Positions 318 through 1,810 of a DNA stretch of 49,064 nucleotides are shown here, piece after piece. The position numbers and the translations under genes were made by a program. Location of the stretch: the IMG/VR virus record IMGVR_UViG_3300012953_000047, positions 1-49,064 of that record. One strand, given 5' to 3'. Under the pieces are notes generated by a model. The model was not told the DNA's origin and made no database searches. It saw nothing but the letters and a program-made list of their open reading frames with translations. Within the stretch, counting starts at the first letter, position 1, and the number at the start of each line of letters is the position of its first letter. Source of the stretch: a virus. Its lineage: Duplodnaviria > Caudoviricetes.

Positions 318-324
318 TATTTAG
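318..324 (-). promoter_or_regulatory. T4-type late promoter (CTAAATA)
   Basis: Matches the gp55-type late promoter core, ~24 nt upstream of the ATG at 294. Confidence 0.7.
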
Positions 325-326
325 AT

Positions 327-353
327 AAAAAAAGGACCCCCTTGCGGGGGCCC
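327..353 (-). terminator. Rho-independent terminator downstream of g23
   Basis: GGGCCCCC-GCAA-GGGGGTCC stem with GNRA loop followed by T7. Confidence 0.9.
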
Positions 354-373
354 AGCACTTCCTTCACACGGAT
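327..373 (-). ncRNA. Candidate ~47-nt small RNA with an arm complementary to the Yfr1 motif
   Basis: Lies between a sigma70-like promoter (380-408) and the terminator; no ORF; carries GUGUGAAGGAAGU at 369-357. Confidence 0.45.
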
Positions 374-379
374 GTGAAG

Positions 380-408
380 ATTATATCACATGAGGTTCTT
401 AACAGCAA
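380..408 (-). promoter_or_regulatory. Sigma70-like promoter overlapping the g23 stop codon
   Basis: TTGCTG(408-403)-17 bp-TATAAT(385-380) with extended -10 TGn supplied by the TGA stop. Confidence 0.55.
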
Positions 409-1810
409 CACGTCTGTAGTAACGGTTCTGGTTGATGTTCAGAGCACCTGCACCTTGACTGGTTCCTTCTGCAAATGGGTTGGCGACGATCCCGTAACGG
501 GTCTTGAAGCCAATTTTTGGTTGGAAGGAGTTCTCACCAACGGCGCGAACCATTTGGAGAGGAACGTAAGGACAATAGAACAGACCAGCGTCATAAGGGG
601 AAGTACCCTTATAACCTACAACGTAATACTGGTTACCTGGGGTTGCGTTAGCAGAGGTCAGGTTTGCAGCATATGGGTCGATGTAGACGCGGAATTTGCC
701 CATCAGGGTTCCGGCGAAGGTGTTGCCGGTGTCATCAACGTTAAGGTTTGCGTTGAGTGCAGGGGTGTAATCGAGAACACCAGCCATGGTCAATGCAGAT
801 GCTACGTCTGCAGAGCACATGATGATGTTGCCCTTCCCGCGACGAGTTCTTTGTGCGATAGCGTTGGCATCGCGCTCGATCTGGAACAGGAGACCCTTGA
901 ACTTCTCAACACTCCAGCGACCGTTGGAGTCGATGTCGAGGTCGAATACACCAGCGGTAGCGGTGTTCTGAACAGCACCTTGCTCAGCAGTCTTGTAGAT
1001 GGTTCTGATGACTTCGCGGTTGATCTCAGCAAGAATCTCAGTAGAGAGAATGTTTGCGAGTTCCGCTTCAGCATTCAGACCATGGATTGCCTTAAGGTCT
1101 TGTGCGAGTTCTAAGGAGTACTCAGCCTTCAGTGCTCTAGACTTCGCAGTAACGGTGACTTTCTCGATTGAGAATGCCATCTGGTTGAAGGCATTGTTAC
1201 CAGTGCCATCAAGAGATTCTGCGTCGTCAGTACGCATGCCCTGACCAACTCTGTAGGCGAGGGAGGATGCGGAACCAACTGGGTTAAGTACAGATGGGTT
1301 AGTACCGGACTGTGCGGTAGTACCCATACCAGCGATAGGATCGGTCATTCCGTCTTCGCCGTTGGACGCCTTGTCGCGGCCGGAGAATGCGGAATCAACT
1401 TCGTTGTAGAATGCCTCGGTGCCAGACTGTGAAGTGTAGCGTGAGCGCATTGCAAAGATCAGTCCAGTAGGACCGGTCATTGGTTGAACGCCTGCGAGGT
1501 CATATGCGACCAGGTTAGGCATTGCGCGTCTGATCAGGGAGATCAGAACTGGATCGAAACCAGCGGTCGGGCCGGTTGCGGTTGCGCCAGCAGAGAAACC
1601 TGCATTAGCACCAGTCTGGGTGTTAACGTTAGGTTGCTCAGTCAGGAAGGATCCTGAATCGGAGAAAGCACTTTGCTCTCTTAAAAACTTTTCTTGGTTT
1701 TCAAGCAGGGTAGCGGTGACGGCTCTCTTATGGGAATCTTCGATTGAACCAAGACCCTCATAATTGAGGAGAGGTGCCCACTTTTCCTGCAATTGCTCTG
1801 AATTGAACAT
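386..1810 (-). CDS. g23: Major capsid protein gp23
   Basis: T4-like MCP motifs: KWAPLL, LISLIRRAMPNL, GVQPMTGPTGLIFAMR, SRALKAEYSLELAQDLKAIHGL, GLFYCPYVPL, YYRRVAV. Confidence 0.99.
   Translation of the reverse strand: MFNSEQLQEKWAPLLNYEGLGSIEDSHKRAVTATLLENQEKFLREQSAFSDSGSFLTEQPNVNTQTGANAGFSAGATATGPTAGFDPVLISLIRRAMPNLVAYDLAGVQPMTGPTGLIFAMRSRYTSQSGTEAFYNEVDSAFSGRDKASNGEDGMTDPIAGMGTTAQSGTNPSVLNPVGSASSLAYRVGQGMRTDDAESLDGTGNNAFNQMAFSIEKVTVTAKSRALKAEYSLELAQDLKAIHGLNAEAELANILSTEILAEINREVIRTIYKTAEQGAVQNTATAGVFDLDIDSNGRWSVEKFKGLLFQIERDANAIAQRTRRGKGNIIMCSADVASALTMAGVLDYTPALNANLNVDDTGNTFAGTLMGKFRVYIDPYAANLTSANATPGNQYYVVGYKGTSPYDAGLFYCPYVPLQMVRAVGENSFQPKIGFKTRYGIVANPFAEGTSQGAGALNINQNRYYRRVAVKNLM

Follow-up and report, generated by a model that had tools for sequence, protein, structure and literature searches.

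What is a promoter-like signal doing on the stop codon of a phage capsid gene, followed by a short stretch and a terminator, and which host RNA would the resulting transcript meet? The question is raised by the end of g23 in the window, by which we mean the whole stretch of 49,064 nucleotides analyzed here (a virus of the Caudoviricetes, record IMGVR_UViG_3300012953_000047). In a preliminary description the transcript was proposed to be an early phage sponge of the cyanobacterial small RNA Yfr1, with the capsid mRNA staying shielded. Here we surveyed the unit, its complementarity and its distribution, and the results point to the host tRNA-Val(CAC) as its likely partner.

The unit at the end of g23

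The g23 DNA of the window is 79-81% identical to that of Synechococcus phages, its best DNA matches being for example SynMITS9220M01, Bellamy and S-SM2. The features of the locus are given below.

386..1810, minus strand: g23, gene of the T4-like major capsid protein, an ORF of 474 aa (PHROG 138 major head protein, E 7e-174)
403..408, minus strand: -35-like hexamer TTGCTG, weak, within g23 codons and 17 nt from the TG (by sequence)
388-386, minus strand: TGA stop of g23; the final codons and the stop overlap the promoter-like site
380..388, minus strand: extended -10 box TG-n-TATAAT (TG 388-387, TATAAT 385-380) on the g23 stop codon, predicted sigma70 promoter
374..379, minus strand: leader from the -10 box to the predicted start; by folding, it pairs with the head only in the long g23 mRNA
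379-373/368-362, minus strand: 7-bp hairpin (fold prediction)
355..372, minus strand: 18-nt head, perfect complement of nt 23-40 of WH7803 tRNA-Val(CAC) (anticodon loop, 5' stem strand and flanks)
369-357, minus strand: the 13-mer GTGTGAAGGAAGT (by sequence)
327..353, minus strand: intrinsic terminator-like hairpin of 8 pairs with a U7 tail, common to the g23 mRNA and the predicted small RNA
327..373, minus strand: predicted small RNA of ~47 nt, head plus terminator, as placed by the promoter and terminator positions
318..324, minus strand: CTAAATA, late-promoter-like box before the next small ORF at 294-136 (by sequence)

The description of the final codons and stop of g23 as a sigma70-like promoter was confirmed, with its coordinates, on the minus strand, and transcription would start near A373. 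A consensus promoter scan does not list the site at 408-380, because its -35 hexamer matches at only 3/6 positions. The terminator-like stem at 353-334 is followed by seven T at 333-327 (minus strand), and the predicted small RNA is 47 nt long and folds with one hairpin. It had been described as lacking an ORF, and indeed no minus-strand ORF of at least 30 aa was found between 385 and 294.

The CTAAATA box, like the TAAATA boxes of other units, is taken by us to be a T4-type late promoter; it stands behind the g23 terminator in relatives whether or not they have the motif, and is probably a neighbour and not a part of the small RNA. Two small minus-strand ORFs (294-136 and 139-2) come after the terminator and this box; they belong to no PHROG family and were treated as neighbours. 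An Rfam search of the window gave no family at the gathering score, the 14 weak matches up to E 10 being terminator-like and none of Yfr1/Yfr2 type. Of the RNA runs, 24 were listed, none with half the words, and the four examined gave in every case contigs of g23 relatives, none covering 327-373, which is neutral on expression.

Predicted pairing with Yfr1 and with tRNA-Val(CAC)

The 13-mer had been described as the complement of the conserved Yfr1 11-mer with two extra A's, and it is so when compared with the 11-mer as given in a passage of PMC2190773. A bulged match of this kind was obtained in only 9 of 20,000 shuffles of the 20-nt head, and the head is predicted to pair with Yfr1 across the two bulges at -11.5 kcal/mol, having, as Yfr2 has, a 5' head able to pair. 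Passages of PMC6778093 and PMC2518516 state that Yfr2 counteracts Yfr1 through imperfect pairing, which is in favour of a sponge of Yfr1 or Yfr10 working like the host Yfr2, possibly alongside tRNA binding.

Opposite the two "bulged" A's, tRNA-Val(CAC) has U's, which lie in its anticodon loop and stem. The partners compared were 41 distinct tRNAs of Synechococcus WH7803 together with Yfr1 of this strain, which serves as a stand-in for the host of the window. With nt 23-40 of WH7803 tRNA-Val(CAC), positions 372-355 of the window form 18 contiguous Watson-Crick pairs without a gap. The ensemble binding energies, which leave out tRNA tertiary structure, modified bases and EF-Tu, are -20.8 kcal/mol for Val(CAC), -11.5 for Yfr1, -10.0 for Val(GAC) and -4.2 or weaker for the other 39 tRNAs, and none of 20,000 head shuffles reached more than 14 nt of complementarity against any of the 41 tRNAs. 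The phage head matches both RNAs because removal of two U's from the 5' side of the tRNA-Val(CAC) anticodon arm gives the ultraconserved 11-mer of Yfr1, as seen in WH7803 (L599 against L624).

The same complementarity is kept in other units. In 47 distinct g23-linked units, which were selected on a 9-nt core and are related sequences, not independent ones, identity to the tRNA complement is 95-97% at nt 28-24, 70% at nt 23, 21% at nt 22 and 0% at nt 21; that is, conservation of the head decays where the tRNA complementarity ends. The extra A's are nearly invariant and paired with the tRNA, a point against the Yfr1 sponge. Among 27 units that were enriched for 3' variants, no more than 25-62% pairing is left past tRNA nt 27, and the family-wide core is therefore about 11-14 nt. 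tRNA-Val(CAC) is bound better than Yfr1 in 102/102 units folded (47/47, 42/42 and 13/13), a set that left out units with spacers below 7 nt and late-type units. The median binding in the g23-linked set is -18.4 kcal/mol for tRNA-Val(CAC) and -12.9 for Yfr1, the second value being a further point for some Yfr1 binding. For the unbulged Yfr1 complement there were 42 viral matches, spread over 39 loci; a -10-like box accompanies one of them, and none (0/42) has both box and terminator.

The unit has no match to an Rfam family, Yfr1 is not its best predicted partner, and its presence does not follow the Yfr1 hosts. The gap-free tRNA complement, the preference for the tRNA in every unit folded and the failure of the unbulged complement speak against the claim that Yfr1 is the main target. 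What survives of the proposed small-RNA sponge is a conserved unit with its own -10 box and terminator, and we regard the Yfr1 explanation as improbable. With a modelled binding of about -11 to -13 kcal/mol, there may be a side effect on Yfr1.

Of the 119 matches of the window 17-mer in bacterial genomes, 101 lie antisense to a tRNA-Val(CAC) called by ARAGORN; the other 18 have no tRNA call, several of them being at contig ends, and the two commonest matched tRNA sequences are mostly from picocyanobacteria. Scanning with the 5' portion of the head also matched viral tRNA genes read backwards (tRNA-Val(CAC) by ARAGORN). Complements of equal geometry were searched as exact 15-mers for tRNA-Leu(CAG) and tRNA-Ala(CGC), and promoter box, hairpin and U tail were found in 0/69 and 0/107 viral matches, respectively. 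In the window itself the next best anti-tRNA run is 13 nt, and by position none of the other stretches lies in such a unit. Exact copies of the cyanobacterial tRNA-Leu(CAG) 5' half, fused with unrelated sequence, were also seen (L883, 4 copies; L903; L907); they are probably attachment-site remnants.

Spread of the unit, further designs and hosts

The 15-mer CGTGTGAAGGAAGTG is estimated to occur in ~450 IMG/VR stretches. Of 120 matches fetched, 34 follow a g23 end, and the remaining ones are placed behind small genes, TTGACA-type promoters in tRNA clusters, TAAATA-type boxes and tRNA 3' ends; many units lie within phage tRNA clusters. A regular expression found a promoter-like box and hairpin in 99/120 and also a U tail in 84/120, which bears out the expectation that the motif would recur in other phage genomes between a -10 box and a terminator. 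When the scan was anchored only on the g23 end and the -10 box (TGA-TATAMT), 120 matches were obtained, 93 of them at g23; the exact 13-mer is present in 88 of these, variants that keep the 9-nt core in 2, one is cut off, and 2 are without the motif. Among 80 close g23 relatives with 76 recognised ends, -10 box and motif are both present in 3 and both absent in 73. Because the two are present or absent together, the unit reads as a mobile cassette, gained or lost as one piece. Its patchiness (3/76 close g23 relatives) counts against the best reading given below.

Spacer and terminator sequences vary freely among units, with the stem pairing kept. A conserved -35 box was rejected: TTGCTG is found in 9/47 g23-linked units, with 14 hexamer forms at the same spacing. 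The 7-bp hairpin is present in the window at 379-362 as described, but it was rejected as a conserved feature, its exact form being found in 0/47 other g23-linked units. The head is antisense behind three kinds of start (sigma70-type, late-type and tRNA 3' end) and behind many different genes. The label of an "early" RNA can be kept for the sigma70-type copies only, as 20/131 distinct units lie behind a TAAATA late-type box.

Like a trans-acting phage small RNA, the predicted unit has its own promoter-like box, an intrinsic terminator and no ORF, and by prediction a conserved, exposed seed with a specific host complement; in folds of the short forms the mean pairing probability of the head is 0.22. 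On this sequence evidence it is a real, conserved phage small-RNA unit and apparently an undescribed one.

It could also be what is left of a tRNA-Val(CAC) gene in inverted orientation or of an attachment site, or else a DNA- or protein-binding element unrelated to tRNA pairing. Such an origin is plausible, given that longer exact copies of the tRNA-Val(CAC) 3' part are found in other viral contigs (L770, L786 and L787), as in attachment sites. A neutral relic would decay; here the head stays constant as spacers and hairpins change, it is kept antisense behind all three start kinds, and -10 box and motif come and go together. We hold this explanation to be quite improbable.

Some further observations were made on the surroundings of the unit. 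In many phages it stands not behind g23 but behind a small cysteine-rich gene ending C-K-x-x-C-K/R-x-x-L-M (five loci noted, one of them gp134 of Syn9); this gene and g23 both end in Leu-Met-stop, which may ease cassette exchange. Seven loci were noted with an extra conserved stretch between head and terminator. In four contigs the 15-mer lies in a conserved GC-rich, probably coding context without promoter or terminator, and is likely unrelated.

In the long g23 mRNA the head may be partly covered. The six-base leader pairs with the head by at least 4 bp in 30/47 g23-linked units against 4/47 for shuffled leaders, in several registers, and the pairing is above that of shuffled leaders in 34/47, all these counts resting on related, not independent, sequences. 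For 42 units with their own TTGAC-type promoter the numbers are 11 against 4. The long form is still predicted to bind tRNA-Val(CAC) at -17.8 kcal/mol, compared with -20.8 for the short window form; the idea of a shielded capsid mRNA thus holds for the tendency of the leader to pair, but not for a loss of binding. An older hairpin spanning the stop codon makes up part of the leader. A short hairpin (ATGTGA...TCACAT-like) is found across the stop, just after the end of g23, in most g23 relatives that lack the unit, and the window keeps it at 391-372 as an alternative to the 7-bp hairpin. A CRP-like site TGTGA..TCACA at 390-373 was considered and rejected: its two halves are spaced by 8, and relatives lacking the motif have the TCAC half too, in the form of the mRNA hairpin across the stop.

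Two other designs against the same tRNA were found. In S-RSM4 (L743:1501-1516) and Syn1 (L736:1501-1514) a 14-16-nt complement of tRNA-Val(CAC) nt 33-48 adjoins the wcaG RNA. As a 15-mer this second design is the exact complement of nt 33-47, on the other side of the anticodon, and its 84 viral matches consist of 52 wcaG-like by pattern, 3 tRNA genes and 29 others; these last include the five short units of the third design, described below, and three long exact copies resembling attachment sites. Rfam confirmed wcaG in 15/20 loci tested, abutting the motif in 13/20; the window has no match to wcaG (RF01761), its matches being only in other phages. The second design is predicted to bind tRNA-Val(CAC) at -15.2 and Yfr1 at -5.3 kcal/mol, and such poor binding is a further argument against the Yfr1 sponge. 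The third design, in five short units, consists of a complement of the acceptor-stem 3' strand, a linker replacing the T arm, a complement of the anticodon and variable loop, and a terminator. The three designs have only the anticodon complement in common, and therefore the tRNA explains them and Yfr1 does not.

Beside these designs it was seen that the wcaG hairpin unit repeats once after the 15-mer, usually with a phage tRNA (Gly or Leu) next (L754-L836), and that the third-design units (L753, L785, L832, L760 and L804) stand behind a promoter-like box or a tRNA gene. Long exact, attachment-site-like copies of the cyanobacterial tRNA-Val(CAC) 3' part occur in viral contigs (L770, L786, L787 and L755). 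wcaG is called a riboswitch candidate in a passage of PMC2864571; from these sequences, it may be a tRNA-binding RNA.

On the host side, the 17-mer is present in 186/251 genomes of the family of WH7803, nearly always in one copy: in 181/187 genomes of at least 2.1 Mb against 5/64 of at most 2.0 Mb, which from their size we infer to be Prochlorococcus. Five small genomes were checked and have the valine tRNAs GAC and TAC only. The Yfr1 11-mer is in 251/251 genomes of the family, chance matches included, and a passage of PMC6778093 gives yfr1 as missing only in low-light II/III Prochlorococcus.

Among 28 hand-picked and mutually related isolate genomes, where the contrast is suggestive and not decisive, the unit is in 7/17 Synechococcus-isolated and 0/11 Prochlorococcus-isolated phages (Fisher p 0.023). 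MIT9303, a large-genome strain, was the host of isolation for two of the latter. The cultured carriers are Syn9, with the unit at record positions 119421-119437 between gp134 and gp135, S-SM2, Syn33, Bellamy, S-PRM1, S-SKS1 and S-CAM9; neither the stand-alone nor the wcaG-linked design was found in 8/17 Synechococcus phages. A 30-nt BLAST gave 279 records, highly redundant, of which 232 are named Synechococcus, 22 Cyanophage and 2 Prochlorococcus, compared with 389, 61 and 24 for g23; 25/279 fall outside the names Synechococcus and Cyanophage and, among the matches listed, are weak or coding. The sequences thus favour, suggestively, a unit confined to Synechococcus phages among the cultured phages examined. 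The expectation that it would track the hosts having Yfr1 failed: it tracks hosts having tRNA-Val(CAC), and a Yfr1 sponge accounts poorly for its absence from Prochlorococcus-isolated phages when the 11-mer is in every family genome.

Function and comparison with known systems

The best explanation, to which we give a probability of about 0.55, is that the unit yields an anti-tRNA RNA of ~47 nt which slows the decoding of GUG through the host tRNA-Val(CAC). The host RNA polymerase would start near A373 at the extended -10 promoter and make the ~47-nt RNA. The GUG of the head would meet the CAC anticodon, and from there base pairs would form through the loop and along the 5' strand of the stem, so that the arm opens. 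A tRNA held in this way could not decode GUG and may be degraded; it would probably be uncharged too, because the identity elements for ValRS are at the anticodon. GUG-rich host mRNAs would be slowed and the GUG-poor phage mRNAs largely spared, and in the long g23 mRNA the leader would partly mask the head.

GUG makes up 66/1113 valine codons (6%) in 22 ORFs of the window and 0/27 in g23, compared with 1053/1891 (56%) in 72 ORFs from 100 kb of the stand-in host WH7803. It is the third-largest codon gap between host and phage. Only Val(CAC) is targeted though the gap for CUG is larger, and therefore a plain codon shut-off does not explain the choice. The window uses the other four-fold codons ending in G just as rarely (GCG 6.7%, ACG 8.7%, CCG 4.3%), which counts against an avoidance specific to GUG. 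In 20-kb samples, extra GUG avoidance in carriers is not significant against Synechococcus phages without the unit (p 0.24) and has p 0.039 against all non-carriers. The median GUG ratios are 1.14 and 1.48 against 1.70 in Synechococcus phages without the unit, with Syn9 at 2.57, in the wrong direction. Since tRNA-Val(TAC), of host or phage, may read GUG by wobble, such reading may blunt the effect of sequestration. In Synechococcus WH5701, tRNA-Val(TAC) was below detection according to a passage of bioRxiv 10.1101/2024.04.25.591146, and Val(CAC) would therefore be the sole GUG reader there.

The RNA may instead bind tRNA-Val(CAC), its fragment or its precursor for a purpose other than slowing host translation, either by neutralising a non-coding role (as fragment, defence signal or nuclease substrate) or by using the tRNA as a cofactor or sensor, as the wcaG version might in cis. 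The specificity for a single tRNA, with no units for Leu(CAG) or Ala(CGC), the want of significant extra GUG avoidance in carriers, and the fact that one tRNA is approached from either side of its anticodon, and within a riboswitch candidate too, would all suit such a role. Against it, decoding would be blocked by an 18-bp duplex over the anticodon regardless of what the RNA is for, and we consider this alternative possible but rather unlikely. Returning to the anti-tRNA reading, its wider form seems to us on balance probable: cyanomyoviruses would have dedicated anti-tRNA RNAs of at least three designs (stand-alone head, wcaG-embedded and tRNA 3'-half mirror), which all address the anticodon of one host tRNA, tRNA-Val(CAC), disable it by RNA only and shift the ribosomes away from host mRNAs towards those of the phage; the wcaG "riboswitch candidate" would be an RNA that binds a tRNA.

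If this is true, viruses that infect a major group of photosynthetic bacteria would be taking over their hosts in a new way, by an antisense RNA against one host anticodon; the orphan wcaG RNA would gain a candidate partner, and a 47-nt design for switching off one tRNA would be at hand. It would also open to direct testing the question of how cyanophages of low GC manage in Synechococcus hosts of high GC, for which phage-borne tRNAs have so far been the explanation. As Syn9 is a cultured phage carrying the unit, an experimental test is within reach. In the full-text literature searched, which has most subscription papers outside it, neither the element nor any phage RNA directed antisense against a host tRNA was found described.

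Several known systems come near to the unit. The T-box riboswitch, a long cis leader with a specifier pairing of 3-4 bp and an antiterminator, also presents a codon to the anticodon of a tRNA, as the window RNA does with GUG. Unlike it, the window RNA is a 47-nt unit with one hairpin and 18 bp that would open the arm; no T-box match was obtained from Rfam in the window, and the 47-nt unit has no layout of stem I and antiterminator. In T-even infection, and with anticodon nucleases such as PrrC, host tRNA is cut by proteins, and to our knowledge the removal of tRNA in phage infection uses proteins. The likeness lies in one isoacceptor being disabled during infection with codon use shifted; the agent here, unlike in these cases, would be an antisense RNA.

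The Yfr2 family, as described in passages of PMC6778093 and PMC2518516, likewise has a GUGUG-AGG-like 5' head able to pair with the Yfr1 motif; the window unit differs in being phage-encoded, with head and terminator only, without Rfam match, and with a head that is complementary without gaps to tRNA-Val(CAC) and not to Yfr1. Phage and prophage small RNAs and sponges such as SprY, CfrI of S-PM2 and ipeX (passages of PMC12197685) are likewise short, with their own promoter and terminator and with pairing in trans, which is predicted here. The predicted target of the present unit is a tRNA anticodon arm, and the words "tRNA" and "anticodon" have 0 occurrences in that review.

The wcaG RNA (RF01761; PMC2864571) is likewise a non-coding RNA of cyanophages, and its 3' flank complements the same tRNA; unlike it, the window unit has none of the wcaG hairpins, and the part of the arm it would pair with is the 5' side. 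wcaG was published as a riboswitch candidate, and the passages of PMC2864571 examined here name no tRNA partner. A tRNA taken out of use by RNA pairing is described for tRNA-LysT and tRNA-ArgU of E. coli in bioRxiv 10.64898/2026.09.02.748885. There two cellular tRNAs pair by acceptor and T arm at about -8.6 kcal/mol, whereas here a dedicated viral RNA is predicted to pair with the anticodon arm.
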